From: Planctomycetota bacterium
GTDB lineage: Bacteria > Planctomycetota > PLA2 > JAEUHO01
Length of the DNA: 64,000 nt
NCBI GenBank assembly: GCA_965223505.1
Contig: CBDCWP010000010.1
Coordinates: forward strand, 142,971-206,970
Direction: 5' to 3'
Made by a program: the position numbers and the translations under genes. The notes beneath the pieces are model-generated. The model was given only the letters and a program-made list of their open reading frames with translations, was not told the origin of the DNA and made no database searches. This document shows, piece after piece, positions 4,863 to 53,168 of the stretch (the first letter of the stretch is position 1; each line of letters begins with the position of its first letter).

Positions 4863-7800
4863 CTACGGAATGCGGATCTTGATGTTGCGGTACCACACCG
4901 GATCGCCGTGGTCCTGCAGCCCGATGTGTCCGCGCGGCTGGACGCCGAACCCTTCCATGTCCTGGAACTTGCTCTTCGCGATGGCGGCGTTCCATGCCTC
5001 GCCACCCAGCTCTACGTCGACGATCTTCCACCCGTTCAGCCAGTGCTCGAGCCGGCCGTTCGCGACCACGATGCGTGCCTGATTCCACGCGCCGGCGGGG
5101 CGGGTGACATCGAACCGGGGTGCGAAGAGCGCGTAGCACGCGCCCGCCGACGTGAGGGTGGACCCGCCATCCGCGTGCACATCGTTGTCGAGCACCTGCA
5201 TCTCCGGACCGGTGGTCCACATGGCGCCGCCGTCCTCCGTGAGGCGGTAGCACACCCCGCTGTTGCCGCCGGGCGCGAGCTTCCACTCGAGCTTCAGATC
5301 GAATTCGGCGTATTCGGTCTCGGTGACGAGGTCGCCGCCGGTTCCTTCCTTCGAGAAATGCAGCGCGCCGTCCTCGACACGCCACGCGGCGGGCGGCCCG
5401 TCCTGCTTGTAGCCGCGCCAGCCGGCAAGCGTCTCGCCGTCGAAGAGGAGTTTCCAGCCCGCGTCTTGCTCGGCTGGTGTCAGCCGGTTGGGAAGCGGCG
5501 GGGGCGCAGGCAGCTGGGCGTCCGTGCGGGGCCCGGGCAGGCGGTTGAGCGTGTACCACGCCTCCGAGCTCCACGGCCGGTCACCGGCGGCGTTGCGGAT
5601 CGTGCGCGCCAGTCGGAGGTACACGACGTGCCCCTCCTCGAGCCCGGGGATCCGGAGCCACGCCTTGCGTCGGTCCTTCGAGACCGACGCGCCCGCGACC
5701 TCGAGCCGCTCGACGTCCTTCTTCGGGCCGCCGTAGCTCTTCGTCGGCTCGTACCACCACTGCTGAACGAGGTAGTCGGCCGGGTCGTCGCCCGAGACGT
5801 TCGCGAGCGGCTCGGTGAACTCGATCTCGAGTGTGCGGTTCGGCTTGACGCGCACCGCCTTCATCTCGAAGACGCTCTTGCCGTTGTAGGCGAGCCGCTG
5901 CAGCCCGTACTTGAGCTTCCCGGTCTGGCCCCAGTTGCCGCTGCTGCCGATGCCGCCGACGTACAACGCGCCGTCCGGACCCTGTCGCCAGCGGTTGATG
6001 CCGGCTTCGAGTCCCTGGATGAAGCGGAACACGCACCCTTGGTACTGCCCGCAGACCTTTTCGACGAACACGCGCTTGAGCCCGCCATGGGTGACGTCGG
6101 CATGCAGCATCTGTCCGCGCCAGGGTCCGAAGGTCAAGAGGCCCGGTTCGCCGGGTGAGTTGCCGATCTCGCCTTGGGGCAGCCAGACCACGGGTGGTTT
6201 CTCGGGTACGCCCTCCGTGCCCTCGAAGTCGACGGAGCGACTGCCGAAGAAGGCACCGGGCGAGACGTGGACGACCTTGCTGACCGGAAGCCAGTCGCCC
6301 TGGTTGTCCGTGACGAAGATCTCCCCGTGCACACCGAGCCCGATGCCGTTGGGCGTACGCAGGCCGTGCGCGATCAGCTCGTAGCGCCCGTCGGGATCGA
6401 TCTTCACGACCTTGCCGCGGTCGGGATTCTGGGGATGCGTGCTGGCGCCGCCGGGATTGATCGCCGTCGCGAGCGTCGCGTAGAACGCGCCGTCTTTGAA
6501 GACGAGACCGAACGCGAATTCGTGGAAGTTGCTCGTGACGCCCCAGCCGTCGGCGACCGTGCGGTATTCGTCGATGGCGCCGTCGCCGTCCCTGTCGATG
6601 AGCTCGGTCAGTTCCTGCTTCTGCAAGACGAAGATGCGTCCGTTCACGACCCGAATGCCGAGCGGCTCGGCGAGTCCGGCCGCGATGCGACGCACCTCGA
6701 TCTTCGCGGGGTCGCCGGTTTCCGCGCCCTCGAGCACGTACACGCCGCCCATGGGTTCCCAGCAGCAGACGATCATGCGGCCGTCGGGCAACCAGTCGAT
6801 GCCGCCGATACGAGGCTGAAAGCTCTCCGGGCGCGCCTGCGCGAGGTCGAAGGCCGGATGAACGCCGGTCAGCGGTTGGCCGTCGCCCGGAACACCCTTC
6901 GCCGCGACGGGGACCAGCTTCTTCTTGCCGGGCGAGGTCACACGCACCTCGCCCTTCGGCGCGCGCAGCGCTTCGTTCGGCACGATCGCCCAGTCCGCCG
7001 CGCCGGGCGGCTGCCACTCGAGCGTCAGCTGCTCGCCGCCGCCGTTCTCGAAGTGCTCGACGAAGAGCTTGTGGCGGCCCACGGCCAGCTCGAGCTTGCC
7101 TTCCATCGCGGTGACGCCGTGAAGCCCGTCGTGGTCGATGACGACCTCGTCGTTCAGATACAGGCGCGAGCCGTCGTCGGAGAGCAGCCGGAAGCGATAG
7201 ACGCCCGCCGTCTCGACCTCCAGGAAGCCGTCGACGTGCGTGATGAACGTCTCGTCGATGTCGCCGAAGTCCCCGCGTTCCGTTCGCAGATCGAGCACCG
7301 GGATCACGTGCGAGACGTTGGGCGTCTGTCCCGGGACCAGCTTGCGGATTCGGCTCATGGACGCGCCGATGTGATAGACGCGAACCGAGACCCCGTTGCC
7401 CACGGGCGTATCCTTCGGATGCTCGACCACGGCAGGCTCGGGAGGCGCCGCCGCCGTCGGCGCATCCTTGGCGCGGACGGTCGCTTCCTCGGCAGCCTTC
7501 GCCTCGGCGCGCTTGCGCAGCGCGTCCGCATCGAAGAACGCCTCCACGTAGGTCGTGTCCCCCGGACGCAGCCGCACCATGATGTCGCGGGTCGGGAGCA
7601 CCTTGTCCATCGGCGAGACCGGGCCGCCCATGGTGGCCGCCTCGTTCGAGCGCGCGTGGACCAATGCTCGCACCGGCCAGCGCAGACGGATGCGGGGTGC
7701 GCGGCGGCTTCGCACCCGAAAGGTGCGCCGAAGCCCCGGTCGTCCCTGCTTGTCGCGCCGGAACGACGGCGTTTCCTCGACGGTGTACCAGCGTCGTCCG

Positions 7801-8198
7801 AATTGCATCGAGTAGCGCAACGTCACGGTTCGTCCGTCGACGCGGTACCCCAGGAACCGGCAGTCGTCGTTGCGCCACTCGCCTTCCATGTAGAAGTGAC
7901 CGGTGTAGCTGAATCCGGTGCTCGTCGGCTGTGGGCCGTGCACCGTCGTATAGACGGCGCCGTCGAATTTCACGCCGCCCGACCAGGCGTTCTGGAGCTG
8001 GCAGAACTGCGCGTCGTACGTGAGCCACATCTCCTCGTGCAGGGGCAGAGTCACCATGCGGGGGTTTCCGTCGAGCACCGAGCGGAAGACCGGCAGCGGA
8101 TGGGGCGGCGGCGGTTCTTCGTTCGCCAGTGACGTGACCGGAGCGCCGATCAGAAGGGAGCCGAGGATCAACAGGATGCCGAGCCGTCGTGTGCGCAT
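4863..8198 (-). CDS. Secreted 1111-aa multidomain protein: PA14 domain + PQQ/GSDH-like beta-propeller ('membrane-bound dehydrogenase' type) + C-terminal DUF1080 (3-keto-disaccharide hydrolase-like) domain
   Basis: Intact ORF with signal peptide (MRTRRLGILLILGSLLIGAPVTSLA). PA14-like segment (GVYRFRLLSDDGSRLYLNDEVVIDHDG). Propeller motifs (DWLPDGRMIV, FVTDNQGDW). DUF1080-like C-terminus (GWRGYKQ...VCYRL...GHIGLQDHGDPVWYRNIKIRIP). Confidence 0.85.
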   Translation of the reverse strand: MRTRRLGILLILGSLLIGAPVTSLANEEPPPPHPLPVFRSVLDGNPRMVTLPLHEEMWLTYDAQFCQLQNAWSGGVKFDGAVYTTVHGPQPTSTGFSYTGHFYMEGEWRNDDCRFLGYRVDGRTVTLRYSMQFGRRWYTVEETPSFRRDKQGRPGLRRTFRVRSRRAPRIRLRWPVRALVHARSNEAATMGGPVSPMDKVLPTRDIMVRLRPGDTTYVEAFFDADALRKRAEAKAAEEATVRAKDAPTAAAPPEPAVVEHPKDTPVGNGVSVRVYHIGASMSRIRKLVPGQTPNVSHVIPVLDLRTERGDFGDIDETFITHVDGFLEVETAGVYRFRLLSDDGSRLYLNDEVVIDHDGLHGVTAMEGKLELAVGRHKLFVEHFENGGGEQLTLEWQPPGAADWAIVPNEALRAPKGEVRVTSPGKKKLVPVAAKGVPGDGQPLTGVHPAFDLAQARPESFQPRIGGIDWLPDGRMIVCCWEPMGGVYVLEGAETGDPAKIEVRRIAAGLAEPLGIRVVNGRIFVLQKQELTELIDRDGDGAIDEYRTVADGWGVTSNFHEFAFGLVFKDGAFYATLATAINPGGASTHPQNPDRGKVVKIDPDGRYELIAHGLRTPNGIGLGVHGEIFVTDNQGDWLPVSKVVHVSPGAFFGSRSVDFEGTEGVPEKPPVVWLPQGEIGNSPGEPGLLTFGPWRGQMLHADVTHGGLKRVFVEKVCGQYQGCVFRFIQGLEAGINRWRQGPDGALYVGGIGSSGNWGQTGKLKYGLQRLAYNGKSVFEMKAVRVKPNRTLEIEFTEPLANVSGDDPADYLVQQWWYEPTKSYGGPKKDVERLEVAGASVSKDRRKAWLRIPGLEEGHVVYLRLARTIRNAAGDRPWSSEAWYTLNRLPGPRTDAQLPAPPPLPNRLTPAEQDAGWKLLFDGETLAGWRGYKQDGPPAAWRVEDGALHFSKEGTGGDLVTETEYAEFDLKLEWKLAPGGNSGVCYRLTEDGGAMWTTGPEMQVLDNDVHADGGSTLTSAGACYALFAPRFDVTRPAGAWNQARIVVANGRLEHWLNGWKIVDVELGGEAWNAAIAKSKFQDMEGFGVQPRGHIGLQDHGDPVWYRNIKIRIP

Positions 8199-8278: not shown

Positions 8279-9523
8279 ATGAGCGACCGGCTCGGCGTTG
8301 GGATCATCGGTGCGGGCTTCGTGGGCCGCTTCCACATCCAGTCGTGGGAGAGCGTTCGGCACGCCGACATCCGCGCTGTCTGCAGCCGAACGCTGGACAA
8401 GGCCGAGAGCGGCGCGCAGCTGGCGCGCGACCTCGGCGTGGGCGACGCGAAGGCGTTCGACGACGTCGAGGCGATGGTGCGGGATCCGAACGTCGACGCC
8501 GTTTGGATCTGCGTGCCCAACTTCGCGCGGTTGCCGGTGATGAAGGCGATCGCCGCGGTCGGGAAGGGCAACCTGCGCGGCGTGGCCTGTGAGAAGCCGC
8601 TCGGCCGCGACGTCTCCGAGGCGCGGCGCATGCTCGAGCTCGCCGAGGAAGCGGGCCTCTCGCACGGCTATCTCGAGAACCAGTGCTTCATGCCGACGAT
8701 CGTACGCGGCAAGGAGCTGCTGTGGCGTCGCGGGGCGCGCGCGACCGGCCGGCCCTATCTGGCGCGTTGCGCCGAAGAGCACGGCGGGCCGCACGAACCC
8801 TGGTTCTGGCGCGGCAACGAGCAGGGCGGCGGCGTGCTCAACGACATGATGTGCCACAGCCTCGAGGCGGCGCGCTTCCTCTTGCAGGATCCCGACAAGC
8901 CGCGATCGAGCCTTCAGCCGAAGACGGTGTCCTGCGACATCGCCTCCATCAAGTGGAGCCGCGACACGTACATCCGCAAGCTCAAGGAAGAGATGGGCGT
9001 CGACTACTCCGAGAAGCAGTCGGAGGACTTCGCCCGGGCGACGGTGGTCTGGCAATCCGATGAAGGCCACCCCGCCATCACGGAGGCGACGACGTCGTGG
9101 AGCTACGTCGGGCCCGGGCTGCGACTCTCCGTCGAGGTGATGGGCCCCGAGTACTCGATGCAAGGCACATCGCTCAACAATCACCTCAACGTCTTCTTCA
9201 GTCGCGAGGTCAAGGGCGACGTCGGCGAGGACATCGTCGAGAAGCAGACGGCCGAGCAGGGGTTGATGCCGGTCGTGACGGACGAGGCGACCGAGTACGG
9301 CTACACCGGCGAGAACCGGCACATGGTCGATTGCTTTCGCAACGGCACGGCGCCCTCGCTGACCTTCGCGGACGGCCTGGAGGTGACGAAGCTGCTGATG
9401 GCCTGCTACATGTCGGCCGAGCGCGGGGAACGACTCGCGTGGGAGCCGGACGGACTCGAGGACTTCCTCCCCGCGGTGGCGCGCGGCGCGTTCAGCGCCG
9501 AAGACGCTTTCGAGGGCAAGTAG
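8279..9523 (+). CDS. Gfo/Idh/MocA family NAD(P)-dependent oxidoreductase
   Basis: N-terminal Rossmann motif (GVGIIGAGFVGRFH) and typical Gfo/Idh/MocA central region. Intact 414 aa. Confidence 0.9.
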   Translation: MSDRLGVGIIGAGFVGRFHIQSWESVRHADIRAVCSRTLDKAESGAQLARDLGVGDAKAFDDVEAMVRDPNVDAVWICVPNFARLPVMKAIAAVGKGNLRGVACEKPLGRDVSEARRMLELAEEAGLSHGYLENQCFMPTIVRGKELLWRRGARATGRPYLARCAEEHGGPHEPWFWRGNEQGGGVLNDMMCHSLEAARFLLQDPDKPRSSLQPKTVSCDIASIKWSRDTYIRKLKEEMGVDYSEKQSEDFARATVVWQSDEGHPAITEATTSWSYVGPGLRLSVEVMGPEYSMQGTSLNNHLNVFFSREVKGDVGEDIVEKQTAEQGLMPVVTDEATEYGYTGENRHMVDCFRNGTAPSLTFADGLEVTKLLMACYMSAERGERLAWEPDGLEDFLPAVARGAFSAEDAFEGK

Positions 9524-10801
9524 ATGAACGCGACGCCGCCGCTCTCGTTCGGATTGAACAGCCGCCTCTCGTTGATGATGCTGCTGCAGTACGCCATCTG
9601 GGGCGCGTGGCTGCCGCTGTTCGTTCCGTATCTTGCGAACCACCACGGGCTGGGCGGCGCGGAGATCGGGAACCTGTTCGCGATCGGCGCCGTGGGGGCG
9701 TTGCTGGCGCCGTTCATCGCGGGGCAGATCGCCGACCGCTGGTTCAACACGGAGACGTTTCTCGGCATCAGCCACATCCTGGGCGCCGTGCTGGTGTGGC
9801 AGCTCGCCACCGTCGAGACGTACGACGGTCTGCTCTGGTTCTCGCTGGCCTATTCGCTGATCTACGCGCCGACGATTCCGCTCACCAACTCGCTCTCGTT
9901 CCACCACCTGCCCGATCGCGACCGCGACTTTGGCAAGGTCCGCGTTTGGGGCACCGTCGGCTGGATCATCGTCGGCATCGGCGTCGGGCAGTGGCTGCTG
10001 CACCGGCACACCCCCGCGGGCGCCACGGACGACGTCGTCAAGGCGGCGCAGGCGGCCGGGATCGCGGACGCGTTTCGTCTGAGCGCCATCTTGGGCGCGA
10101 TCCTGGGCGTCTTCTGCTTCACGCTGCCGAAGACGCCGCCGCTGAAGGGCAAGGAGAAGTTCGCTCCGAAGGAGGCGTTCGCCGAGATCGTGTCGCGTCC
10201 GCGAACGAATCCCTTGTTCTGGCTCTTCCTCCTGGCGTTTCCGATCTCCTGCGTGCACCAGTTCTACTTCTTCCACACGGCGAACTACCTGACCAGCCTC
10301 GCGCTCGACTCCGAGCTCATTCAGAACGTGTTCGGCGTGGGCGGCGGCGGTCTGATGACCATCGGTCAGATGGCGGAGATCGTGGTGCTGGCCGCCATGC
10401 CGTTCGTCGCGAAACGCGTCTCTCGGCGCGCGCTGTTGCTGACCGGCGTCGCCGCGTACTGCTTGCGCTTCGCCGTCTTCGCGTACCTGCCCTACGGCTG
10501 GGCCGTCGTGCCCGCCTTGGCGCTTCACGGCCTGTGCTTCGGGTGTTTCTTCTTCGTCGCGTTCATGATCGTCGACGAAAACACGACGAGCGACGTGCGT
10601 GCCAGCGCGCAGAGTTCTTTCAACTTCATCGTCATCGGGGTCGGCATCATCGTCGGCAACCTCTTCGCGGGCATGGTCGACGAGCTGGCCGCGGGGGACT
10701 ACCGCGTGCTGTTCGGCGTCCCGATGTGGGTGTCGCTGGGCGTGCTGGTCCTGTTGTTTGCGTTCTATCCTCGGAAAACCCGGGACAAGGCATCCGAATA
10801 G
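9524..10801 (+). CDS. MFS transporter of the nucleoside:H+ symporter (NupG/XapB-like, NHS) family
   Basis: 12-TM profile. NupG-like motifs (QYAIWGAWLP, VRVWGTVGWII). ATG immediately follows the upstream stop. Confidence 0.85.
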   Translation: MNATPPLSFGLNSRLSLMMLLQYAIWGAWLPLFVPYLANHHGLGGAEIGNLFAIGAVGALLAPFIAGQIADRWFNTETFLGISHILGAVLVWQLATVETYDGLLWFSLAYSLIYAPTIPLTNSLSFHHLPDRDRDFGKVRVWGTVGWIIVGIGVGQWLLHRHTPAGATDDVVKAAQAAGIADAFRLSAILGAILGVFCFTLPKTPPLKGKEKFAPKEAFAEIVSRPRTNPLFWLFLLAFPISCVHQFYFFHTANYLTSLALDSELIQNVFGVGGGGLMTIGQMAEIVVLAAMPFVAKRVSRRALLLTGVAAYCLRFAVFAYLPYGWAVVPALALHGLCFGCFFFVAFMIVDENTTSDVRASAQSSFNFIVIGVGIIVGNLFAGMVDELAAGDYRVLFGVPMWVSLGVLVLLFAFYPRKTRDKASE

Positions 10802-10839: not shown

Positions 10840-11790
10840 ATGCCCGCGTCCGCCTACACGTTTTCGGAGGACCCGCAGCTTCATCCGCTGCGGCGGCGCG
10901 AAATTCTCTCCCGGCACCCGGAAGCGAAGGATCTGACCGGGCCGTATCGACCGACGGCGTTCATCATCCTCGGGCTCGTCGGGGCCCAGCTGGCGTTGAG
11001 CTACTTCGTTCGCGACGTTCCGATCTGGTTGAATCTGGTGGGCGCCTACGTGGTCGGCGCCGTGATGAGCCACGCGCTCTACGTGATGATCCACGAAGCG
11101 ACGCACAATCTGGTGTTGAAGAAGTCCTGGGGCAACAAGCTCATGGGCATCGCCGCCAATCTGCCGACCGTCGTGCCGAGCGCAATTCCGTTCCGGAAGT
11201 ACCACCTGCTGCACCACGCCAAGATGGGGGAGCCGGATCACGACGCGGACCTTCCTTCGGCCGCGGAGGGTCGCTGGGTGGGCAACTCGACGCTACGCAA
11301 AGCGATCTGGATGCTCTTCTTCTCGATCGCGCAGTCGTTTCGGCCGGCGCAGATCCGCGGCGCGAAGCTGATCGACGGCTGGACGGTCGCCAATCTCGTC
11401 GCCGTCCTCGCGGTGGACGCCGCGGTCTGGATCTTCTTTGGTCCCACGGCGTTGCTGTATCTGACGGCGTCGACGCTGTTCGGGCTGGGGCTGCACCCGC
11501 TCGGGGGCCGCTGGATCCAGGAGCACTTCGTCACGCACCCCGGCCAGGAGACCTACTCCTACTACGGCGCCGCGAACTGGATCGCGTTCAACGTCGGCTA
11601 CCACAACGAGCACCACGACATGCTGAACGTGGCCTGGAACCGGTTGCCCGCGCTGCGTCGCACGGCGCCCGAGCTCTACGACGATCTCGTCTCGTATCGT
11701 TCGTGGACGGCGGTCTTGCTGCGGTTCATCTTCGACCGCAACCTGTCACCGCATTCGCGCGTCGTTCGGGCGGGCAAAGCGAGCCTCTGA
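10840..11790 (+). CDS. Sphingolipid delta4-desaturase (dihydroceramide desaturase, DEGS/Des1-like) family fatty-acid desaturase
   Basis: Three His boxes (HEATHN, HLLHH, HNEHH). N-terminal Lipid_DES-like region (LRRREILSRHPEAKDL...) closely parallels eukaryotic DEGS1. Confidence 0.9.
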   Translation: MPASAYTFSEDPQLHPLRRREILSRHPEAKDLTGPYRPTAFIILGLVGAQLALSYFVRDVPIWLNLVGAYVVGAVMSHALYVMIHEATHNLVLKKSWGNKLMGIAANLPTVVPSAIPFRKYHLLHHAKMGEPDHDADLPSAAEGRWVGNSTLRKAIWMLFFSIAQSFRPAQIRGAKLIDGWTVANLVAVLAVDAAVWIFFGPTALLYLTASTLFGLGLHPLGGRWIQEHFVTHPGQETYSYYGAANWIAFNVGYHNEHHDMLNVAWNRLPALRRTAPELYDDLVSYRSWTAVLLRFIFDRNLSPHSRVVRAGKASL

Positions 11791-11809
11791 CCGGGGTAGG
11801 GGAGAGGGC

Positions 11810-11926
11810 ATGCGAGTCGTGGCGCGTGCCGCTTGGTGGTTGCTCGAGCTGCCGTTCTTCGTCCTGTACTGCACGTCCTGGGGATGGGCGCACGCGCACC
11901 CGCCCGGCGGCCTCGCCGAGATCTGA
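11810..11926 (+). CDS. Possible 38-aa hydrophobic micro-protein downstream of the desaturase
   Basis: ATG preceded by GGAG at -9. High GC3. Sequence MRVVARAAWWLLELPFFVLYCTSWGWAHAHPPGGLAEI. Confidence 0.25.
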   Translation: MRVVARAAWWLLELPFFVLYCTSWGWAHAHPPGGLAEI

Positions 11927-12702: not shown

Positions 12703-13383
12703 CTACCAGACGCCCGGGATGATCCGGAAACGTACGCGGGCGGCGTACGCGGCGTAGCCGTCGAGCTCGCTGCGCAGCGTCCGGTCTTCGAGCGCCGCCC
12801 GTAGGAAGACCCACATCACGACCACGGCGGCCCCCGGCAGCGCCCACAGGCTGCGCAAGACCAGCGGGATGCCGAGCGTGAGCACGAGGAACCCGACGTA
12901 GCCGGGATGACGAACGTACCCGTACGGGCCCGTGTCGATCACGCGATGACCGCGGTCCGTCTGGATGCGGACCGTCGACTCGAAGTGCGGGTTGACCAGC
13001 ATGGCCCAGAGCAAGAAGGCATAGCCGGCGGCGTACAGGCCGATGCCGACGTACACCCACGACGCGTGAAGCCGAGGCCAGCCGAACCGAACGCCGAATG
13101 ACGGCACGACGACCAAGCCGACGAAGATCAGCTTCAACGCACCCATCAAGTAGAGGTCCCAGCGCTTCGTGCCCTTGCCGATGCGTGTCCTGCGGCCCAC
13201 GAGCTCCGGCTGGAAGCGCGCCAGAAGCAAGGTCGTGACCAACCAGGTGAGGAAGATCAATGCGACGAAGATCCAGCCTTCGGGCCACTGCCAGGTCCCG
13301 GCCGGCCAGAACACCATGGCGAGCAGCGAGCCGAATCCGATCAGGATCAGCATCGATACGCGCAGGAGCTCGGGTCTAGTCAA
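12703..13383 (-). CDS. Isoprenylcysteine carboxyl methyltransferase (ICMT) / phospholipid methyltransferase family membrane protein
   Basis: Multi-TM protein with C-terminal RHPGY motif (YGYVRHPGYVGFLVL). Confidence 0.8.
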   Translation of the reverse strand: MTRPELLRVSMLILIGFGSLLAMVFWPAGTWQWPEGWIFVALIFLTWLVTTLLLARFQPELVGRRTRIGKGTKRWDLYLMGALKLIFVGLVVVPSFGVRFGWPRLHASWVYVGIGLYAAGYAFLLWAMLVNPHFESTVRIQTDRGHRVIDTGPYGYVRHPGYVGFLVLTLGIPLVLRSLWALPGAAVVVMWVFLRAALEDRTLRSELDGYAAYAARVRFRIIPGVW

Positions 13384-18908: not shown

Positions 18909-20546
18909 TTGCCTCATTCGCTCATGACGCCGGCCGCCAACTTCGACCTCACCGATCCCACGGTGATGCTCGTCGCCTTCGCGGTCTTGTTCCTGTTCAG
19001 CTTCCTGATCCTGCTGATCAAGCGCTACAAGCGCTGTCCGTCCAACAAGATCCTCGTCGTCTACGGCAAGGTCGGCGGCGGCGGCGCCTCGAAGTGCATT
19101 CACGGCGGCGGCGCGTTCATCTGGCCGCTGATCCAGAACTACGAGTTCCTCGACCTCGAGCCGCGGCAGATCGAGATCCCGTTGCGCGGCGCGCTGTCGA
19201 TCGAGAACATCCGCGTGAACGTTCCGTCGATCTTCACCGTTGCGGTCGGGACCGAGACGGGCGTGATGAACAACGCCGCGATCCGCCTGCTGGGGTTGGG
19301 GCACAAGGAGATCGAGGCCCAGGCGCGCGACATCATCTTCGGCCAGCTGCGCCAGGTGATCGCCTCCATGCAGATCGAGGAGATCAACCGGGACCGCGAC
19401 TCCTTCCTCGAACGTGTGCAGTCGTCTCTCGAGCCGGAGCTCAAGAAGATCGGCCTCGTGCTGATCAACGTGAACATCACCGACATCACGGACGAGTCCG
19501 GCTACATCGAAGCCATCGGCCGTAAAGCGGCCGCGACCGCGATCCAGCAGGCCGAGATCGACGTCGCCGATCAGGAGAAGAAGGGCTCGGTCGGCGTCGC
19601 GGAGGCCAACCGCGAGAAGGACGTGCGGGTCGCGGAGGCGATCAAGGACCGCGACATCGGCACCAAGGCGGCGGATCGGGAGCGTCTCGTTCAGGTCGCG
19701 GACCTCGACAAGGAGACCAAGATCGGCGAGCAGCGCGCGGCGTATCAGCGCGACGCGGAGATCGCGGACGCGGAGCGCGAAAAGCGCGTGCGGGTCGCGG
19801 ACGCGGACGCGCAGGCCGTCACCGGCGAGAACACGGCCAAGGCGCAGATCGCCAAGGCGGATGCCGATCTGCAGGTCGAGCGCGCCGAAGCGTTCCAGCG
19901 CGGCGAGACGCGCAAGCGCGTCGCCGAAGCCGAGGTCTTCAAGGCGCAATACGAAGCGCAGGCGGAAGCCGCGAAGGCCGAGGCCGCGAAGGTCGAGCAG
20001 GAGAAGATGGCCGACCTCGTGGCGCCCGCGAAGGCGACCAAGGCCAAGGTCATGGTCGACGCCGAGGCGGAAGCCGAGAAACGGCGCATCGAGGCCGAGG
20101 GTGAAGCCAAGGCGATCTACGCCAAGCTCGAAGCCGAGGCGCGGGGTCAGTACGAGATCCTGGCCAAGAAGGGCCAGGGCTTCGGAGAGATCGTCCAGGC
20201 CTGCGGCAGTGCGCAGGCGGCCTTCCAGATGCTCATGCTCGAGCACATGGATCACCTGTCCGAGAACGCGGCCAAGGCCATCTCGAACATCAAGTTCGAC
20301 AAGGTCGTGGTCTGGGACTCCGGATCGGTGGACGGCGGCGGCAGCGCCACGTCGAACTTCCTCTCGAACATGGCCGGCTCGTTGCCTCCGATGCTCCACA
20401 TGATGAAGGACATCGGCGGTGTCGAGATGCCGGAGTTCTTCGGCAAGCTCGTCGACGCCGAGAAGGCGAAGGACGTCAAGCCCGCCAGGCCCACCAAGCG
20501 TGGAAAGGGCGCGGACGAGGACAGCAGCGGCGGCGGCAAGGCGTAG
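18909..20546 (+). CDS. Flotillin (SPFH/band-7 domain, FloT/YuaG-like)
   Basis: N-terminal TM, SPFH domain, and long Ala/Glu/Lys-rich coiled-coil 'flotillin' repeats. Confidence 0.85.
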   Translation: MPHSLMTPAANFDLTDPTVMLVAFAVLFLFSFLILLIKRYKRCPSNKILVVYGKVGGGGASKCIHGGGAFIWPLIQNYEFLDLEPRQIEIPLRGALSIENIRVNVPSIFTVAVGTETGVMNNAAIRLLGLGHKEIEAQARDIIFGQLRQVIASMQIEEINRDRDSFLERVQSSLEPELKKIGLVLINVNITDITDESGYIEAIGRKAAATAIQQAEIDVADQEKKGSVGVAEANREKDVRVAEAIKDRDIGTKAADRERLVQVADLDKETKIGEQRAAYQRDAEIADAEREKRVRVADADAQAVTGENTAKAQIAKADADLQVERAEAFQRGETRKRVAEAEVFKAQYEAQAEAAKAEAAKVEQEKMADLVAPAKATKAKVMVDAEAEAEKRRIEAEGEAKAIYAKLEAEARGQYEILAKKGQGFGEIVQACGSAQAAFQMLMLEHMDHLSENAAKAISNIKFDKVVVWDSGSVDGGGSATSNFLSNMAGSLPPMLHMMKDIGGVEMPEFFGKLVDAEKAKDVKPARPTKRGKGADEDSSGGGKA

Positions 20547-21509: not shown

Positions 21510-21929
21510 CTAGTTCCGCGCGGCGTTCAGCGCCGCTTCCTCGTCGTCGTAGTGGGGCACGAGCCTACCGACGCCCGTGATGTCCAGCACCTTCATCGGT
21601 TGTTTCTGCACCCCGGAGAGAAGGAACTGCTTGCCGGCGTTCTTGGTCGAGGTGTAGCAGGCGGCGATGATGCCGACGCCGGCGCTGGTGATGAAGTCCA
21701 CGTCGGCCATGTTGAAGAGCACGATCGAGCGGCCGGCGAAGTGCGCTTCCTTCGCTTCTTCACGAATCTGATCGAGGAACTCGTAGCATCCCTCGGTCTC
21801 GCCGAGGACGCCGTGCAGGCGATAGACCAGCGCGTCTTCGGCGCTCTCATCGCGTTCCACTTGCAGACGATGGGACTCGGTGTTCACGGTTCGACCTCCG
21901 TGCGCTTCGGCGCGGGCGGACGATACCAC
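21510..21929 (-). CDS. STAS-domain protein (anti-sigma-factor antagonist SpoIIAA-like); the true start is possibly an internal GTG near 21887
   Basis: Motif DFITSAGVGIIAACYT. Located 19 nt downstream of the patatin-domain membrane protein gene on the same strand. Confidence 0.6.
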   Translation of the reverse strand: MVSSARAEAHGGRTVNTESHRLQVERDESAEDALVYRLHGVLGETEGCYEFLDQIREEAKEAHFAGRSIVLFNMADVDFITSAGVGIIAACYTSTKNAGKQFLLSGVQKQPMKVLDITGVGRLVPHYDDEEAALNAARN

Positions 21930-21950
21930 GCCTCGGCGGCCGGGGGCCCG

Positions 21951-24719
21951 CTAGGGTCGAAGCGCTCGCTTCAGGCGCGCGGGCAGACTACCGGACGCAG
22001 GGTCGTCCTTGGTCCAGCCTCGCTGGATCCACTCGCGCACCCGCGCGGCGTCACCGTGGAGCTCGATGCCGTCCAGCCGCTCCTGGTCGAAGATCGCGTG
22101 GAGCAACTCGAGCATCGTGGCACGGCAGATTTCGACGTCTGCGCGCGCCGTCCGATCGAGCTCGAACGGATCGCGTACGCGAAACGCCGGCGGCACCATC
22201 CAGTGCGTGCCGAAATCGGCGGCGTCCCGCAGCGCGGGCGGCATCGGGAGGTAGTGGATCTCGATCGGGCGCTCGATCGGCGGCAGCGCTCTCGCCTCGC
22301 GAGCCGCATTGATCTTCGCGTTCGCATCGTCGAGGAGCATGGCGATCAGCTGATTGGCGAAGCGCTCCTTCGACGTGCTCAGCGCGCCGAGGCCGCGGTC
22401 CCGCGCGTACTTGACGCCGCCAAGGGCCGAGGCCTCAGCGACGAGGATGCGGATCGGACGCCACGTCGACGCGTCGTTCTCGTTCATCGTGATCCGGAGG
22501 GCGACGAGCAGAGAAAGCACACCCCGATTGTCGATGGTGCCGCCATCCGTCAGCCAGAACAGCTCCTCGACGTCGCCTTTCTTCAAGACGGCGCCGACAT
22601 TCGAGAACACGGGTGGGAAGTTCGCGTTCGTCGCGGCGGCGCGACAGATCCCGAGCGCGGGGCCGGAGAGGAACACGTACGGGAGCTTCATTTCCCACGC
22701 GTCCGGGTCGGGCTGGATCGCAGCATGGGCAGAGGTCTCCGACAACCCGGCGATGTTCGTGAACACGCACCGTCCCCCGCTCTCGAAGGTCGTCGTGACC
22801 GATGCGTTCGTGCCGTCCACATCGAAGGCTGCAGCTTCGGGACGGCGCACCGCTCCCGTTCTCCTGGATCCCGAGATGCCGGTGTTGAACATCAGGCCCA
22901 GATCGGTGATGGAGTGCAGTGCGGTGTCGTTGCGGCCGCCGTTCCCGCCGCCGGCGGTGAAGGTCCGCACGAAACTCTCCGTGAGCACGTCGCCGAAGTG
23001 GGCTCCTTGCTGCAGGCGCAGCTCGGGCGCGCTCCGCACGACCTCCGCGATGAACTCGTGCGTGAGCTGCGTCTGGAACGTCTGCCACTGCTTCTCGGCG
23101 GTGAGCGCATCCTTGTGCAGCGCGTAGTAGGCCAGCGCCGCCCCGCCGCCGGAGACCGAACTGCCCGCCACGATGCGGCGCATCGCCTCCGGGTCGTGCA
23201 CCCAGATGCCGTGCATCAGCGCCTCGGCGAACAGCGCGGCGCGGGATCCCCCGCCTGAGACGGCCAGCAACAGCGCGGGCTCGTTCGTTTCCGAGAGTTT
23301 CGCATGCAGGTCGAAGGGTCGCGTGCCGTCTGCGTTGTCGCCGGCGTCGTTGGTCACCGCGATGCTCGTATTCTTGGTGTCGTTGAACCGGCTGTAGACG
23401 TTGACCGCCATCACGCCCAGCAGGACGGCCAAGAGGATCCCGTTGTAGATCGTCTGACGGCGTCGCATGGCGCGCAGATGGCGCGCGCCAGGGCCGTCTT
23501 TGTAGTCCTCCACGAAAACGACCTGTTTCGGGGTAAACGTGGGCTCTGCCGCCGGCTCCTCCGACGGCGAGGCGTCGTACGCCTCTCGTAGCGATTCGGG
23601 GGTCGGTAGCTGCTCGGCTTCTTTCGGCGCGTTCTCCGCAAGGATGGAGAAGAGGTCGATCGGCTCGAAGCTCTCGTAGCGCCGGGTCTTCCCGCCGGAT
23701 TTCTCGATCGCCATGAGCCGCCCCGCTCCGTGCATCTGGATCGTGCAGCCGTCACGCTTCCCGTAGGCGATCTCCTTGGTCTCGTTGTTTGGGTTCAGGA
23801 CGCGCATGAACCAGGCACCTGCGGTGATGCGCGTCCAGTAGTCATACAGCCAGAACAGCACATAGAAGCCCAAGACGTACGCGCCCAGCACCCGCGGGGC
23901 GCCCGCCATCACGACTTCGACGTACTGCACGCCGAAGATGCGGCAGATCGCGATGAGGATCACCGCCACGGTCACGATCGCGGGCGCGCCGCTGGTGAGC
24001 AGACGTCCCACCCCGCCCCGTAGGATGGCGAGACGGTATTTGTAGTGCGAGATCGTCAGTAGCACGATGCCGACGACGAGCCACCAGCCAATGACGGGGC
24101 CTCTCGGTCCACAGACCAGGACGCCCACCGAGACGAACCACAGCAGGAGGATCGGCGTCTGGATCGGCGCCATGAAGACGGCGCGGATCAACGCGCGCCA
24201 GTCCCACTCGGTCTTGGTCGGCTGCCGAAAGAGCTCGGTCTCGTCCACGCATTCGTGGAAGTACTCGTGCATCTCATCGTGTGCGACGCGAAACAACAGC
24301 CACGCAAGAAGCTGGGACACCAGCATGCCGATGCCGAGCACGAAGACGGCGAAGTAGCCCATTGTGTGCTCGAACGGCTTGTCGCTGTGTTCGAGCTGGT
24401 TGCCGTCCGCCAATCGAAACGTGAGCCATGTCATGCCCGCGATCACGGCAAAGTGCATGTAGCGCGCGAGCGTGAACGGGACCTTGTGCGCGAGGGCGGC
24501 CGAAAGCACGAGGAGCGCGAACGCCAGTGCGCACCACAGCGGCAGTCCCGCGCGTGCCGTGAACGGCAGCCACGTTCCGTACGAGGCGAGGAAGACGACC
24601 AGTGCGGGGAGGAGCAGTGAGTAGACCGTGTGACCGCGTAGCCACGGGAAGTCGGTCCGATTCATGAAGAGGTCGAAGCCGCGCAGTCTGTTGTTGATGA
24701 CGCTTGCAATCCAGCCCAC
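21951..24719 (-). CDS. 922-aa polytopic membrane protein with C-terminal patatin-like phospholipase (PNPLA) domain
   Basis: About 10 TM helices in the first ~430 aa. Patatin oxyanion motif (SGGGSRAA), nucleophile-elbow-like (AGSSVSGGG) and catalytic DGG (FWLTDGGTIDNRG). Confidence 0.85.
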   Translation of the reverse strand: MGWIASVINNRLRGFDLFMNRTDFPWLRGHTVYSLLLPALVVFLASYGTWLPFTARAGLPLWCALAFALLVLSAALAHKVPFTLARYMHFAVIAGMTWLTFRLADGNQLEHSDKPFEHTMGYFAVFVLGIGMLVSQLLAWLLFRVAHDEMHEYFHECVDETELFRQPTKTEWDWRALIRAVFMAPIQTPILLLWFVSVGVLVCGPRGPVIGWWLVVGIVLLTISHYKYRLAILRGGVGRLLTSGAPAIVTVAVILIAICRIFGVQYVEVVMAGAPRVLGAYVLGFYVLFWLYDYWTRITAGAWFMRVLNPNNETKEIAYGKRDGCTIQMHGAGRLMAIEKSGGKTRRYESFEPIDLFSILAENAPKEAEQLPTPESLREAYDASPSEEPAAEPTFTPKQVVFVEDYKDGPGARHLRAMRRRQTIYNGILLAVLLGVMAVNVYSRFNDTKNTSIAVTNDAGDNADGTRPFDLHAKLSETNEPALLLAVSGGGSRAALFAEALMHGIWVHDPEAMRRIVAGSSVSGGGAALAYYALHKDALTAEKQWQTFQTQLTHEFIAEVVRSAPELRLQQGAHFGDVLTESFVRTFTAGGGNGGRNDTALHSITDLGLMFNTGISGSRRTGAVRRPEAAAFDVDGTNASVTTTFESGGRCVFTNIAGLSETSAHAAIQPDPDAWEMKLPYVFLSGPALGICRAAATNANFPPVFSNVGAVLKKGDVEELFWLTDGGTIDNRGVLSLLVALRITMNENDASTWRPIRILVAEASALGGVKYARDRGLGALSTSKERFANQLIAMLLDDANAKINAAREARALPPIERPIEIHYLPMPPALRDAADFGTHWMVPPAFRVRDPFELDRTARADVEICRATMLELLHAIFDQERLDGIELHGDAARVREWIQRGWTKDDPASGSLPARLKRALRP

Positions 24720-25795: not shown

Positions 25796-26497
25796 ATGGT
25801 CATCGCGATCGACTTCGACGTGTACGAGTTCGCCTGCGACGGCGCGCGGTGGGGCGTTCCCCACGCGTGGAACGTGCTGTCGAACGTGCCGTTCCTGTTC
25901 GTCGGCTTGTGGGGCCTGGTCACGATGGCGCGCGGCGGCGCCTTGTCGGACGGCCGGTTCCGCAACTGGACCGGTCTCTGGATCTCGACGGCCCTGCTTT
26001 GTTTCGGGTCCGGCGTCTATCACTGGGTGCCGGAGCCCTGGTCGCTGGCGCTCGATCGAGCGTGCATCGGGGGCATCATCGCGTTCATCGGCGCGCACGC
26101 CGTCACGACGTGTCTGCAGGTGCCGTCGACGCGCGAGCTGTCTCTCGCCCTGCTGATCGTCTGCGAGCTGTCCGTGGGGGCGTGGTACCTGGGAATCGAC
26201 GGCGGCTGGATGTACGCGACGCTGCAGGCCGGGGGGGGCGTGGGGGTGTTGCTGTTGTACGCGGTCGCGTGGCGCAAGGGCCGGCTGCGAACGTCACCGG
26301 CGCCGGTCTTCCTGTTCTCGGCCTGCTACGCCTTGGCGAAGATCGTGGAGGTGGGCGACCAGGTCGTCTGCGACTGGACGGGCGTGATCGGCGGCCACCC
26401 CTTCAAGCACCTGCTCGCCGCTCTGGGGCTGATCTTCCTGGGCGGCATGATGAAAGCGGAGATGGAACAGCATGGGCAATCCGTGGACGCAGGCTGA
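25796..26497 (+). CDS. Alkaline ceramidase-like (Ceramidase family) 7-TM membrane hydrolase
   Basis: Conserved Ceramidase-family residues in order: NVLSNVPF, SGVYH, LALDRAC, GGHPFKHLL. Confidence 0.6.
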   Translation: MVIAIDFDVYEFACDGARWGVPHAWNVLSNVPFLFVGLWGLVTMARGGALSDGRFRNWTGLWISTALLCFGSGVYHWVPEPWSLALDRACIGGIIAFIGAHAVTTCLQVPSTRELSLALLIVCELSVGAWYLGIDGGWMYATLQAGGGVGVLLLYAVAWRKGRLRTSPAPVFLFSACYALAKIVEVGDQVVCDWTGVIGGHPFKHLLAALGLIFLGGMMKAEMEQHGQSVDAG

Positions 26498-27167
26498 GCA
26501 CGCGCGGCATTGGTTGTCGGGGCCGCGGCCCGGCAACCCGTACTCGGACGAGCAATGGGGCGTCGTGTTGGCGCTCTGCGAGGCGCAGCGTCCGCGGCGG
26601 ATCCTCGATCTGGGTTGCGGTCCCGGCGACTTCGACCGGCGCCTGCTCGATCGCGCGCCGGAAGCGTCGCTCGTCTGCCTGGACGCGTCGGAGACGATGC
26701 TCGAGCGCGCGCGTCACCGGCTTCGCGACGACGAATCGCGCGTTGCGTTCGTACGGGCCGAGGTCGAAGACGACTGGACGGGACAGACGGGCGCCGATTT
26801 CGACGCGATCCTCGCGCTCAATGTGGTTCACCATCTCGACGGCCCGGCCAAACGCAGTGTGTTCGCGCGCTGTCGTGACGGGTTGCGGCCCGGGGGACTG
26901 CTCGTGCTGAGCGATCGGGTGACCGTGGACGAGCGCTGGTTCGGACACTACAAGGCGCTGTGGAACCGCGCGCGGCGAACGCACGACTACGAGCCGCTCC
27001 CGGCCGACTACGGCCACGACGACCACCTCGAGCAGAACGAGCGGGCCGGCGACGTGCCGGACCGATTGCGGGATCAGCTCGAGTGGATGTCGAACGCGGG
27101 GTTCGACCCGGTCACGTGTTTCTGGCGGCACGCGAATCGCGCCGTGTTCGGTGGGTTGCGCGGGTAG
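26472..27167 (+). CDS. Class I SAM-dependent methyltransferase
   Basis: Motif I ILDLGCGPGDF and post-I acidic residue. Confidence 0.7.
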   Translation: MGNPWTQAEHARHWLSGPRPGNPYSDEQWGVVLALCEAQRPRRILDLGCGPGDFDRRLLDRAPEASLVCLDASETMLERARHRLRDDESRVAFVRAEVEDDWTGQTGADFDAILALNVVHHLDGPAKRSVFARCRDGLRPGGLLVLSDRVTVDERWFGHYKALWNRARRTHDYEPLPADYGHDDHLEQNERAGDVPDRLRDQLEWMSNAGFDPVTCFWRHANRAVFGGLRG

Positions 27168-40031: not shown

Positions 40032-42191
40032 ATGAAACTCCGTCGCGCCCTTTGCCTGATTGTCCTGATCTCGGCCTCCCGAGGACTCTGTGTGCCGAGC
40101 GCAGACGGCGAGGAACGGATCGAGCGGCGCGCGCCGGGCACGATCGTGCTCCGCGGCGACCCCGACCGCGTCGCCGGACACCGCATCGTGCCGGCGTTCC
40201 CGCGGCTGCGGTTCCGGCGGCCGCTCTACTTCGGCTTCCTCCCGGACGGTTCGGGCCGGCTGTGCGTGTTGGAGCAGGACGGACGCGTCTTGCTGTTTCC
40301 CAACGCCGACAACGTCGGCCCGGAGCAGGTCCACGTCGCGCTCGACATCCGGCAGAAGGTCTATCGGAAGCACAACGAAGAGGGCCTGCTCGGCATCGCG
40401 TTCCACCCGCGGTTCGCCGAGAACCGAACGCTGTTCATCCACTACTCGGCCAACGGCCCGCGCCGCGGCGTCGTCTCGCGCTTCCGGATGAATCGCGCGC
40501 GAACGAAGATCGATCCCCGGAGCGAGCGCGTCGTCCTGGAACAGCGCCAACCGTGGGGCAATCACAACGGCGGGGGGCTGGAGTTCGGTCCGGACGGGTA
40601 CCTGTACATCACGTTCGGCGACGGCGGCGCCGGCGGCGACCCCCAGGGCAACGGCCAGAATCTCGGCACGTGGCTGGGCTCGATCTTGCGCATCGACGTG
40701 GATCGCAAGTCGCCGTACGCGGTTCCGCCCGACAACCCATTCGTCAAGCACCGCGGCGCGCGCCCGGAGATCTGGGCGTACGGTCTGCGCAACGTGTGGC
40801 GATTCTCGTTCGACCGGCTGACCGGCGATCTGTGGGCCGGCGACGTCGGTCAGAACGCGTGGGAAGAGATCGACCTGATCGTCAAGGGCGGCAACTACGG
40901 CTGGAAGATCCGTGAAGGCGCGCATCCGTTCCGCGGGCAGGGCCGAACGGAAGGCTTGATCGATCCGGTGATCGAGTTCGACACCTCCCAAGCGCGATCC
41001 ATCACCGGCGGCTACGTGTACCGCGGCAAGAAGCTCCCGGGCCTCGTCGGTACGTACGTCTACGCGGACTATGCGACCGGCAACGTGTGGGGCTTGAAGT
41101 GGGACGGCGAGACGGTGCGCGAGAATCGCTTGCTCGGCCGCGGCCGCAGCGTGTCGAGCTTCGGAGAGGACGCCGACGGCGAAGTCTACTTCACGTCTTT
41201 CGACGGTCGCATCTACACGTTCACACGTCCGCGTCATGCGAACGCGGGCGGGCGATTCCCGCGCAAACTCTCCGAGACGGGTCTGTTCACCGACACCGCC
41301 GCGCTGACGCCGCACGCCTCGCTGATTCCGTACGAGGTCAACGTGCCGCTCTGGTCCGACGGGGCGGCGAAGCAGCGCTACGTCATGCTGCCGGGCATGG
41401 AGCGGGTGCGTGTCGGTGCCGACGGTCGCTTCACGTTCCCCCAGGGCACGATCTTCGTGAAGACGTTCTTCGCCGGCACCTCGGCGAAGGCCCCGCGGCT
41501 CGAGACCCGACTCTTTGCCCGTCGTGACGAGGGTTGGCGGGGCTACACGTACGTCTGGAACGAGGCGCAGACCGACGCCGAGCTGATCGACGGCCGCGTC
41601 ACGGCGCCGACCTCCGCCCAGGCGCGTCGCGCGGGACTGGCCGACCGCTGGACGTTTCCGAGCCGTTCGGACTGCATGAGCTGCCACACGGAGGCAGGGG
41701 GCTCGGTGCTCGGTTTTCGCGCGGAGCAGCTTCACCGCACGAACGAGCACTTCGACGAGGCCACCGTCAGCCGGCTCGAGGTGCTGCAGCGCATCGGCGT
41801 CTTCGAGGAAGGCGCCGACCCACGCGCCGTGACGTCGTTTCCGCGGTGGGACGACGGCAAAGCACCCCTCGACGGCCGGGTCCGCGCGTACCTGGATACG
41901 AACTGCGCGAGCTGTCATCAGCCGGGCGCGCCCGGCAACGCTCGCATCGACCTGCGGTACGACACGCCGCTCGGCGAGTCGCGCATGCTCGAGGAGCCGC
42001 CGGGCGACGACGACCTGGGCGTGCCGAACGCGCGCATCGTCAAACCGGGCCGTCCGAATCAGTCGCTGCTGCTGCTTCGCATGTTACGCACCGACGAGAA
42101 GGGCATGCCGCACATCGCCCACGAGTCGGTCGACCGCAAGGCCGTCGACCTCGTCACGCGATGGATTCGATCGCTGCGTCCGCTGAAGTAG
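40032..42191 (+). CDS. PQQ-dependent sugar dehydrogenase (GSDH/sorbosone dehydrogenase family) fused to a C-terminal dihaem cytochrome c domain (two CxxCH)
   Basis: Signal peptide. HNGGGLEFGPDGYLYITFGDGG and the other GSDH propeller motifs. CMSCH and CASCH haem-binding motifs. Confidence 0.9.
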   Translation: MKLRRALCLIVLISASRGLCVPSADGEERIERRAPGTIVLRGDPDRVAGHRIVPAFPRLRFRRPLYFGFLPDGSGRLCVLEQDGRVLLFPNADNVGPEQVHVALDIRQKVYRKHNEEGLLGIAFHPRFAENRTLFIHYSANGPRRGVVSRFRMNRARTKIDPRSERVVLEQRQPWGNHNGGGLEFGPDGYLYITFGDGGAGGDPQGNGQNLGTWLGSILRIDVDRKSPYAVPPDNPFVKHRGARPEIWAYGLRNVWRFSFDRLTGDLWAGDVGQNAWEEIDLIVKGGNYGWKIREGAHPFRGQGRTEGLIDPVIEFDTSQARSITGGYVYRGKKLPGLVGTYVYADYATGNVWGLKWDGETVRENRLLGRGRSVSSFGEDADGEVYFTSFDGRIYTFTRPRHANAGGRFPRKLSETGLFTDTAALTPHASLIPYEVNVPLWSDGAAKQRYVMLPGMERVRVGADGRFTFPQGTIFVKTFFAGTSAKAPRLETRLFARRDEGWRGYTYVWNEAQTDAELIDGRVTAPTSAQARRAGLADRWTFPSRSDCMSCHTEAGGSVLGFRAEQLHRTNEHFDEATVSRLEVLQRIGVFEEGADPRAVTSFPRWDDGKAPLDGRVRAYLDTNCASCHQPGAPGNARIDLRYDTPLGESRMLEEPPGDDDLGVPNARIVKPGRPNQSLLLLRMLRTDEKGMPHIAHESVDRKAVDLVTRWIRSLRPLK

Positions 42192-44332: not shown

Positions 44333-44781
44333 GACGACTCCGGCGCGCCGCGAAGCATGTCGAACGACCGCCGGGCCGCCTCTCGCGAGGCGAGATCCTC
44401 GAGCGCGGTCACCCGTGCTTCGAACTCGATCACGGCGGCGCGTTCGCCCTCGACCGACGCCTCGGCCCGGTAGGCGCGGCGTGCTTCGTCGTCCGACGCC
44501 GTCCGCTCGATCGACAGGTCCACGCGGTCGCCCGGCGCGGCGAACCGGTAATAGCGGGCGGAGACGACGCGATCCAAGAGCACCCAACGCTCGAACGCCG
44601 AGGACGACGCCTCCATCCAGCCGGCGAGCTGTGCGAGCGCCTCGAGAATCAGCATGCCGGGCAGGATCGGCCGCTCGGGAAAGTGCCACTCGAGGTAGTC
44701 CTCGCTCATGGCCACGTTCTTCCAGCCGGTTGCGCGGTCGGCCTCGATGGACCGGATCCGATCGACGAGCAGGTACCTCAT
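44329..44781 (-). CDS. FabZ/FabA-like hot-dog beta-hydroxyacyl-ACP dehydratase
   Basis: Motifs LLVDRI and EWHFPERPILPGMLILEALAQ. ATGA overlap with upstream acpS. Confidence 0.8.
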   Translation of the reverse strand: MRYLLVDRIRSIEADRATGWKNVAMSEDYLEWHFPERPILPGMLILEALAQLAGWMEASSSAFERWVLLDRVVSARYYRFAAPGDRVDLSIERTASDDEARRAYRAEASVEGERAAVIEFEARVTALEDLASREAARRSFDMLRGAPESS

Positions 44782-49830: not shown

Positions 49831-49834
49831 GGGG

Positions 49835-50407: not shown

Positions 50408-50475
50408 CGATCGGGGTCTCCGGGGCGGCGGGTCGGTGTACCCGGCACTCGGGGCGTTTGCAAGGCGTGCGAAGG

Positions 50476-52946: not shown

Positions 52947-53168
52947 CGAAGCTCCTCGTGCGAGATTTTCCTCACAGGCGTGGGGTCCCGTTCTCAGCTG
53001 CGCAGCGGGTGCTCTCGACACAACCTCCTCCCGTAGGCGAAGTTGGCCCGTTTTCGGCCCGGAACGGGTGCTGAGGACGCTCCGAATACGCAAGAGCGGG
53101 ACCGATTCGGCGTCCGGTGCCCGCGGCACGCCCTTCGCGCAGTGGCGCACACTCCCGGAGGGCTTGAC

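Follow-up and report, generated by a model that had tools for sequence, protein, structure and literature searches.

Does a gene that resembles the animal sphingolipid delta4-desaturase show that a bacterium makes its sphingolipids along a eukaryote-like route, or does it belong to the ceramide chemistry of bacteria themselves? The question is raised by a 64-kb stretch of DNA of probable planctomycete origin (64,000 nucleotides; here, "the window"), in which the initial annotation had combined such a gene with a ceramidase-like gene and a short downstream open reading frame (ORF) into a sphingolipid metabolism based on eukaryote-like enzymes. Three core enzymes have been described for the bacterial ceramide pathway, namely Spt (serine palmitoyltransferase), the acyltransferase bCerS, and the reductase CerR, and no desaturase is among them (Uchendu et al. 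2024, PMC11087976). We therefore considered the gene product, its relatives across bacteria, and the genes that surround them.

The gene and its bacterial relatives

The gene is an ATG-initiated ORF on the plus strand (positions 10840 to 11790) that encodes 316 amino acids, and Pfam, the identity to DES1 and DES2, and an AF2 model all assign the product to the DES/DEGS family of membrane di-iron desaturases/hydroxylases. Pfam placed the Lipid_DES N-terminal domain (PF08557) on residues 6 to 35 (positions 10855 to 10944), with 27.7 bits for a gathering score of 23, and FA_desaturase (PF00487) on residues 63 to 288 (E value, 1.1e-27). The ORF and the three DEGS histidine boxes previously reported for it were present and could be read directly from the DNA, all on the plus strand: HEATH (H85 and H89; positions 11092 to 11106), HLLHH (H122, H125, and H126; positions 11203 to 11217), and HNEHH (H255, H258, and H259; positions 11602 to 11616). 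Their spacing (HX3H, HX2HH, and HX2HH) and their locations are those of the DES/DEGS family, and all three boxes were invariant in the alignment described below. The G+C contents at the first, second, and third codon positions were 0.62, 0.44, and 0.88, a pattern also shown by the flanking genes in this window of 67.7% G+C.

BLASTP aligned 306 residues of the protein with primate DES1 (41% identity; 4 gaps; E value, 8e-74) and with primate DES2 at 39% identity over 309 residues (E value, 8e-64). Judged by these alignments, the similarity to DES1 is far beyond chance. The match of the N-terminal, Lipid_DES-like region to animal DEGS1, on which the initial annotation had relied, proved to be real: the domain scored above the Pfam cutoff, the BLASTP alignment was collinear, and the segment QLHPLRRREILSRHPEAKDLTGP paired nearly residue for residue with the corresponding segment of animal DES1.

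Relatives of the protein formed 5,337 protein clusters at an E value of ≤0.001 (clusters at 90% identity; 8,000 candidates scored), and the best foreign protein matches reached 65% identity. At least 591 stretches of bacterial contigs, taken from one genome per species, encode a relative, as do at least 586 further stretches of metagenome contigs. Among the matches listed, the best species representative was a metagenome-assembled genome (MAG) of Planctomycetota (60% identity), and the carriers included Bacteriovoracaceae, Acidobacteriota, Gemmatimonadota, Anaeromyxobacter, Ignavibacteria, and Gammaproteobacteria, as well as Cytophagales, Chitinophagaceae, and Saprospiraceae, with the cultured Puia, Chitinophaga filiformis, and Flavisolibacter longurius. 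The family thus ranges over Planctomycetota, Bdellovibrionota, Bacteroidota, Acidobacteriota, Myxococcota, Gemmatimonadota, and Gammaproteobacteria. Many of these relatives are named "sphingolipid delta-4 desaturase" by JGI, and the NCBI name is "fatty acid desaturase."

In a neighbor-joining (NJ) tree, all bacterial sequences fell into one group and vertebrate DES1 and DES2 into the other, with the window protein placed together with two relatives (P0003 and P0004) beside sequences from Planctomycetota MAGs. The tree was midpoint rooted, with no outgroup and with vertebrates as its only eukaryotes, and is therefore silent on the direction of any ancient transfer. The window gene is one member of a large bacterial DES/DEGS branch rather than a lone gene of eukaryotic type. 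The 41% identity to the animal enzymes would fit a gene recently acquired from a eukaryote, or an assembly contaminated with eukaryotic DNA, but the probability of either is close to nil, contradicted as they are by a third-position G+C content (GC3) of 0.88 equal to that of the flanking bacterial genes, by nearest relatives that are bacterial or metagenomic (56 to 65% identity), and by the separation of the bacterial clade from vertebrate DES1/DES2.

Kinship with the vertebrate enzymes and predicted fold

The sphingolipid delta(4)-desaturase family is said to have been defined by Ternes et al. in 2002 (J Biol Chem). Our alignment comprised the window protein, 25 homologues of bacterial or metagenomic origin, and 10 vertebrate sequences of DES1 or DES2. 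The vertebrate sequences were obtained with a human DEGS1 query, which was validated by its match to DES1 clusters in the database at 97 to 100% identity. Across the 26 bacterial and 10 vertebrate sequences, 45 columns were invariant, including all eight box histidines and also H15, H78, H219, and H229; within the Lipid_DES domain, H15, R18, and P27 were invariant in both groups.

The window protein and DES1 have in common the Lipid_DES plus FA_desaturase architecture and the positions of the histidine boxes, and their lengths are similar (316 and 323 amino acids, respectively). However, the window protein is missing the N-terminal Met-Gly of the vertebrate enzymes, which we take to be their myristoylation site, and does not have the 2-residue insertion that vertebrate DES1 has after the first box. 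Two motifs also set the groups apart, GGRWIQEH in the bacterial clade versus SGHFIAEH in vertebrates and GQETYSYYG versus GHETYSYYG. Boxes and domains are likewise common to the window protein and to DES2, with the 39% identity over 309 residues given above. Vertebrate DES2/DEGS2 is a bifunctional delta4-desaturase/C4-monooxygenase, and in the NJ tree, the window protein was equidistant from DES1 and DES2.

The NCBIfam models of other desaturase-type enzymes fitted poorly. DesA (NF052548) and DesB (NF052549) scored 31.7 and 23.5 bits for a cutoff of 500, and the scores of DesB, DesA, CrtR, and CrtW lay between 23 and 32 bits, versus cutoffs of 350 to 500, matching partial stretches only. An ordinary acyl-lipid (glycerolipid fatty-acid) desaturase with a superficial resemblance to DEGS would also match the generic FA_desaturase domain, and several relatives are named just "fatty acid desaturase" by NCBI; nevertheless, this reading has only a very slight probability, as it is contradicted by the low and partial NCBIfam scores, by the end-to-end DES1 alignment (41% identity; E value, 8e-74), and by a Lipid_DES score that exceeds the Pfam cutoff. 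The assignment to the DEGS family made in the initial annotation thus stands, on both Pfam domains, on full-length identities of 41 and 39%, and on the 45 columns held in common with the vertebrate enzymes, and the protein is not one of the ordinary acyl-lipid desaturases. These comparisons identify it as a true member of the DES/DEGS family.

The AF2 model, built on the alignment, had a pLDDT of 86.4 and a pTM of 0.86. Its best matches in the PDB were a desaturase-like chain of the Ycf2-FtsHi complex (Foldseek TMq, 0.61 to 0.64), AlkB, and SCD1. SCD1 (4ymk, 4zyo, and 6wf2) and AlkB (8f6t) share the general fold with the model (probability, 0.92 to 1.0; TMq, 0.34 to 0.44), but their identity to the protein is only 14 to 16%. 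As modeled, the protein has a membrane di-iron oxidase fold. Sequence searches of the PDB with the protein or its profile gave no match and no structure of the DES family.

Gene neighborhoods in the window and around the relatives

Within the window, the gene is preceded on the same strand by a GFO/IDH/MocA oxidoreductase gene (positions 8279 to 9523) and, abutting it, a gene for a nucleoside-H+ symporter-type MFS protein (positions 9524 to 10801) that ends 38 nucleotides before the DEGS start, both identified by Pfam. The two genes may be cotranscribed with the DEGS homologue, but they have no functional tie to it, and the arrangement is common to none of the closest DEGS relatives. On the 3' side follow a 300-nucleotide spacer and a secreted-looking protein of 173 amino acids that belongs to no family; an ICMT/PEMT-type membrane methyltransferase gene (Pfam) lies on the opposite strand. 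The spacer had an unremarkable RNA folding z-score of −0.35, promoter and terminator scans of it stayed at background, and the window contained no Rfam family. Some 45 further ORFs of the window, picked by codon-position G+C, were scanned with Pfam. With proteins from related DEGS loci as queries, tblastn found in the 64-kb window no Spt, no GNAT (bCerS-like) protein, no epimerase-family (CerR-like) reductase, no acyl-AMP ligase, and no DAG-kinase-type lipid kinase. The DEGS homologue is a stand-alone gene here, behind an unrelated transporter gene.

The surroundings of the relatives were more telling. All-against-all clustering of the ORFs from 80 loci revealed no universal conserved neighbor and only lineage-specific synteny; around the three closest relatives (61 to 65% identity), the neighborhoods were unrelated to that of the window and to each other. 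A targeted search for sphingolipid-type genes covered 164 related DEGS loci (2.1 Mb). Ten of them had a sphingolipid-type neighbor, in about four independent arrangements and always with bacterial-type genes, and the DEGS homologues of these ten loci were 50 to 53% identical to the window protein. In two loci (L056 and L113), five directly adjacent genes on one strand encode, in this order, a fatty acyl-AMP ligase, a reductase of the NAD-epimerase family, acyl carrier protein (ACP), Spt, and the DEGS homologue; with the NCBIfam model NF047599 (cutoff, 500), their Spt proteins scored 679 and 622 bits. The former locus comes from a Gammaproteobacteria MAG and encodes, in addition, a GNAT homologue 7 kb downstream. 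In two other loci (L123 and L147), a bona fide Spt gene (620 and 617 bits) lies 8 kb upstream. In both loci from Bacteriovorax (L002 and L004), an Spt-like gene lies 5 to 8 kb downstream and is followed by genes for a 395-amino-acid GNAT and an epimerase-family reductase; the best NCBIfam match of this Spt-like gene was Spt, at 495 to 503 bits and thus under the cutoff of 640. Finally, a DAGK_cat lipid kinase gene stands directly downstream of the DEGS homologue in six loci (L123, L147, L137, L039, L026, and L017), and the characterized ceramide kinase of Caulobacter, CpgB, has a DAGK_cat-type domain (PMC10331486).

Relatives of the window protein hence adjoin Spt, ACP, acyl-AMP ligase, reductase, and GNAT genes, that is, genes of the bacterial Spt/bCerS/CerR type, although none of the genes of that pathway occurs within the 64-kb window. 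Stankeviciute et al. reportedly described this bacterial pathway of Spt, bCerS, and CerR in 2022. The neighbors support a tie between the DEGS family and the tailoring of ceramide from the bacterial pathway, and the 10 loci with bacterial-type sphingolipid genes among the 164 point to a sphingolipid-tailoring role and contradict a separate eukaryote-like route. The proposal that the gene signals sphingolipid metabolism by enzymes of a eukaryotic kind, and not just the ceramide pathway of bacteria, gained no support from this comparison, given a large bacterial clade whose informative neighbors are bacterial-type genes.

The same proposal extended to two other features of the window. The first is a 38-codon ORF on the plus strand (positions 11810 to 11926), described as a hydrophobic micro-ORF with a Shine-Dalgarno sequence and a possible small membrane partner of the desaturase. 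The micro-ORF exists, with the length reported and with a purine-rich Shine-Dalgarno-like run (GGGGAGAGGG; positions 11799 to 11808, plus strand) before it, but it starts 19 nucleotides after the TGA and not 18. Its G+C contents by codon position (0.64, 0.56, and 0.87) resemble those of a gene but amount to weak evidence over 39 codons in DNA with an intergenic G+C content of 0.70; by a binomial estimate, roughly one frame in 50 to 100 would show such a bias. Searches with tblastn of 84 and then 164 related loci gave no match. When 1.84 billion representatives were searched with HMMER, the only three matches fell within long repetitive proteins, and the strongest of them (5e-12) was the sum of matches along the tandem repeat of a 3,655-amino-acid protein. 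When small ORFs from 155 loci were clustered, no conserved small ORF appeared behind the DEGS homologues, and the micro-ORF fell into no cluster. Small ORFs downstream of Puia-type homologues were also considered and set aside: their conservation extends to several frames simultaneously, and we take them to be the shadow of other conserved DNA and not a partner gene. Conservation thus lends no support to a membrane partner, and the micro-ORF is probably noncoding; that it encodes an orphan small protein is the less probable option.

The second feature is the ceramidase-like ORF on the plus strand (positions 25796 to 26497; 233 amino acids), whose profile and AF2 fold are those of a seven-helix protein of the CREST/alkaline-ceramidase superfamily. 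PF05875 gave 13.2 bits (E value, 0.058) for a cutoff of 32.5, with nothing at an E value of ≤0.001. No more than 48 homologues of the protein could be detected, the majority with PF05875, and N30, S72, H76, D87, H201, and H205 were invariant in 31 of its homologues; the resulting pattern of Ser-x3-His, Asp, and His-x3-His presumably corresponds to the zinc-site positions of ACER3. The family profile matched SIDT2 (5.5e-5) and ACER3 (8.8e-5) about equally, and the best PDB match of the AF2 model (pLDDT, 93.4) was ACER3 (6g7o; TMq, 0.71; root mean square deviation, 3.8). The protein is a putative lipid hydrolase of the CREST superfamily and a distant member of the alkaline-ceramidase superfamily that misses the cutoff of the Pfam Ceramidase family. 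The 14 kb between it and the DEGS homologue hold MutS-, SPFH-, 2-hydroxyacid-dehydrogenase-, STAS-, patatin-, and aldo-keto-reductase-type genes, and none of the 164 DEGS loci contained a relative of it. Lying so far away behind unrelated genes, it adds little to the sphingolipid argument; of the ceramidase-like gene as first described, the ORF and its superfamily remain, as a distant member and unlinked.

Put together, the DEGS homologue, the ceramidase-like gene, and a 38-amino-acid membrane partner would form a eukaryote-like sphingolipid module, for which one can adduce the Shine-Dalgarno-like run and GC3 of 0.87 of the micro-ORF and the ACER3-like fold of the 233-amino-acid protein with its S/H/D/HxxxH positions kept. 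We regard such a module as improbable to a high degree, as the micro-ORF has no homologue in 164 loci and only repeat artifacts in HMMER, no small ORF is conserved downstream in 155 loci, ceramidase-like relatives occur in 0 of 164 DEGS loci and the two genes stand 14 kb apart in the window, and the DEGS relatives adjoin genes of the bacterial-type pathway.

Candidate function and significance

The explanation that we favor, with reasonable though not high confidence, is that the gene encodes a bacterial DES/DEGS enzyme that carries out an optional tailoring step on ceramide from Spt/bCerS/CerR. By homology, the eight box histidines would hold a di-iron center at the cytoplasmic face, where O2 and two electrons would drive the abstraction of hydrogen at C4 of a sphingoid base. 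The substrate would most likely be N-acylated sphinganine (dihydroceramide), oxidized at C4(-C5), and the product would carry either a 4,5-double bond (4E; DES1-like) or a 4-hydroxyl (DES2-like), two outcomes between which the sequence cannot separate. Eukaryotic DES enzymes take their electrons from cytochrome b5; no cytochrome b5 domain is fused to the DEGS homologue or encoded nearby. The enzyme would act on ceramide from the bacterial Spt/bCerS/CerR route and not in a separate eukaryote-like pathway.

Sphingolipid production by the source organism would not in itself be surprising. A set of 138 Black Sea MAGs of Planctomycetota has been reported to carry Spt-like genes (PMC11334938), so that a planctomycete that makes sphingolipids would be unremarkable. 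What counts against a sphingolipid role is that the window holds no sphingolipid genes and that 154 of the 164 related loci have no sphingolipid neighbor. Both observations would be accommodated if the enzyme had kept the fold and the chemistry but acted on another substrate, either not a sphingolipid or a sphingolipid-like compound, in an organism without Spt. Candidates for such a substrate are the capnine-type sulfonolipid base, an N-acyl amino lipid, or another long-chain amide, and many of the carriers are Cytophagales or Chitinophagaceae, groups in which sulfonolipids occur. We consider this alternative unlikely but worth keeping in view, and two observations weigh against it: the conservation with the dihydroceramide-specific enzymes extends over the full length, Lipid_DES included, and the informative neighbors of the relatives are always sphingolipid genes. 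A tailoring step on bacterial ceramide therefore remains our preferred reading.

Studies of sphingolipids in bacteria have established the roles of Spt, bCerS, CerR, and a ceramide kinase. Our search of the literature found no experimentally characterized bacterial DEGS member, sphingoid-base desaturase, or sphingoid-base hydroxylase. Since the DEGS family is widespread and, in some genomes, lies inside Spt clusters, it is an obvious candidate for the missing tailoring step and also for studies of where the eukaryotic enzyme came from. This candidate role belongs to the whole family, which annotation pipelines already call "sphingolipid delta-4 desaturase," and the window locus is one more member of it, in a context that is itself uninformative. 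We advance tentatively the proposal that bacterial DEGS homologues, this one included, are responsible for the 4-unsaturated or 4-hydroxylated sphingoid bases of bacteria. If it is true, bacteria and eukaryotes would share, after Spt, a second ceramide step by true homology (ca. 40% identity), in contrast to the convergent bCerS and CerR steps. For the probable planctomycete source of the window, it would mean the production of sphingosine- or phytosphingosine-type ceramides.

Gene neighborhood of the desaturase

Directly upstream of the gene for the sphingolipid delta4-desaturase (DEGS) family protein (window positions 10840 to 11790, plus strand) lie a GFO/IDH/MocA and MFS gene pair (8279 to 9523 and 9524 to 10801, plus strand) and, farther out on the minus strand, a gene for a 1,111-aa protein with PA14, DUF7133, and C-terminal 3-keto-disaccharide hydrolase domains (4863 to 8198). 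We infer that such gene content is common in Planctomycetota and Verrucomicrobiota. An ICMT/PEMT-family membrane methyltransferase is encoded 0.9 kb downstream of the desaturase, on the opposite strand (12703 to 13383, minus), and it had no relative in the all-against-all clustering of ORFs from 80 loci encoding DEGS homologues.

Other lipid- and membrane-related genes in the window

The CREST/ceramidase-like ORF, a distant member of the alkaline ceramidase superfamily (25796 to 26497, plus strand), shares its last 26 nt with the beginning of the next gene, which encodes a class I SAM-methyltransferase (26472 to 27167), and this overlap suggests that they form a two-gene unit (25796 to 27167). 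On the minus strand, three ketoacyl-synthase-type genes (43232 to 44689, 45925 to 47154, and 48541 to 49830), a FabA-like dehydratase (47151 to 47975), and an SDR/FabG-type reductase (50476 to 51234) make up a run (43232 to 51234) that looks like a dedicated fatty acid or polyene-type biosynthesis cluster. A 922-aa protein carrying a patatin-like phospholipase domain in its C-terminal half only is followed directly 3′ by a small STAS-domain protein on the same strand (both within 21510 to 24719, minus). The window also encodes two membrane-microdomain-type proteins, SPFH/Band 7 (18909 to 20546) and flotillin-like FloA (62375 to 63301), together with two large paralogues with glucose/sorbosone dehydrogenase (GSDH) domains (40032 to 42191 and 53043 to 55301), the former of which has a C-terminal cytochrome c domain as well.

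Genes adjacent to DEGS homologues in other genomes

A compact, single-strand five-gene cluster including the DEGS homologue was found in a gammaproteobacterial MAG (L056, 5036 to 10921) and a metagenome contig (L113, 1435 to 6822). Its order in both is fatty acyl-AMP ligase, epimerase-family reductase, ACP, serine palmitoyltransferase, and DEGS homologue, an arrangement like the spt neighborhood of Caulobacter with the desaturase added. In Puia-type Chitinophagaceae (L036, L051, L067, L080, L130, and L140), conserved small ORFs in several overlapping frames lie 3′ of the DEGS homologue; their conservation is most simply explained as conserved DNA of another feature, rather than as a small partner protein. 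At six loci (L123, 9932 to 11929; L147; L137; L039; L026; and L017), for the most part from gammaproteobacterial MAGs, the gene directly 3′ of the DEGS homologue encodes a DAGK_cat (YegS/LCB5-type) lipid kinase, a possible partner enzyme that would phosphorylate ceramide or long-chain bases.
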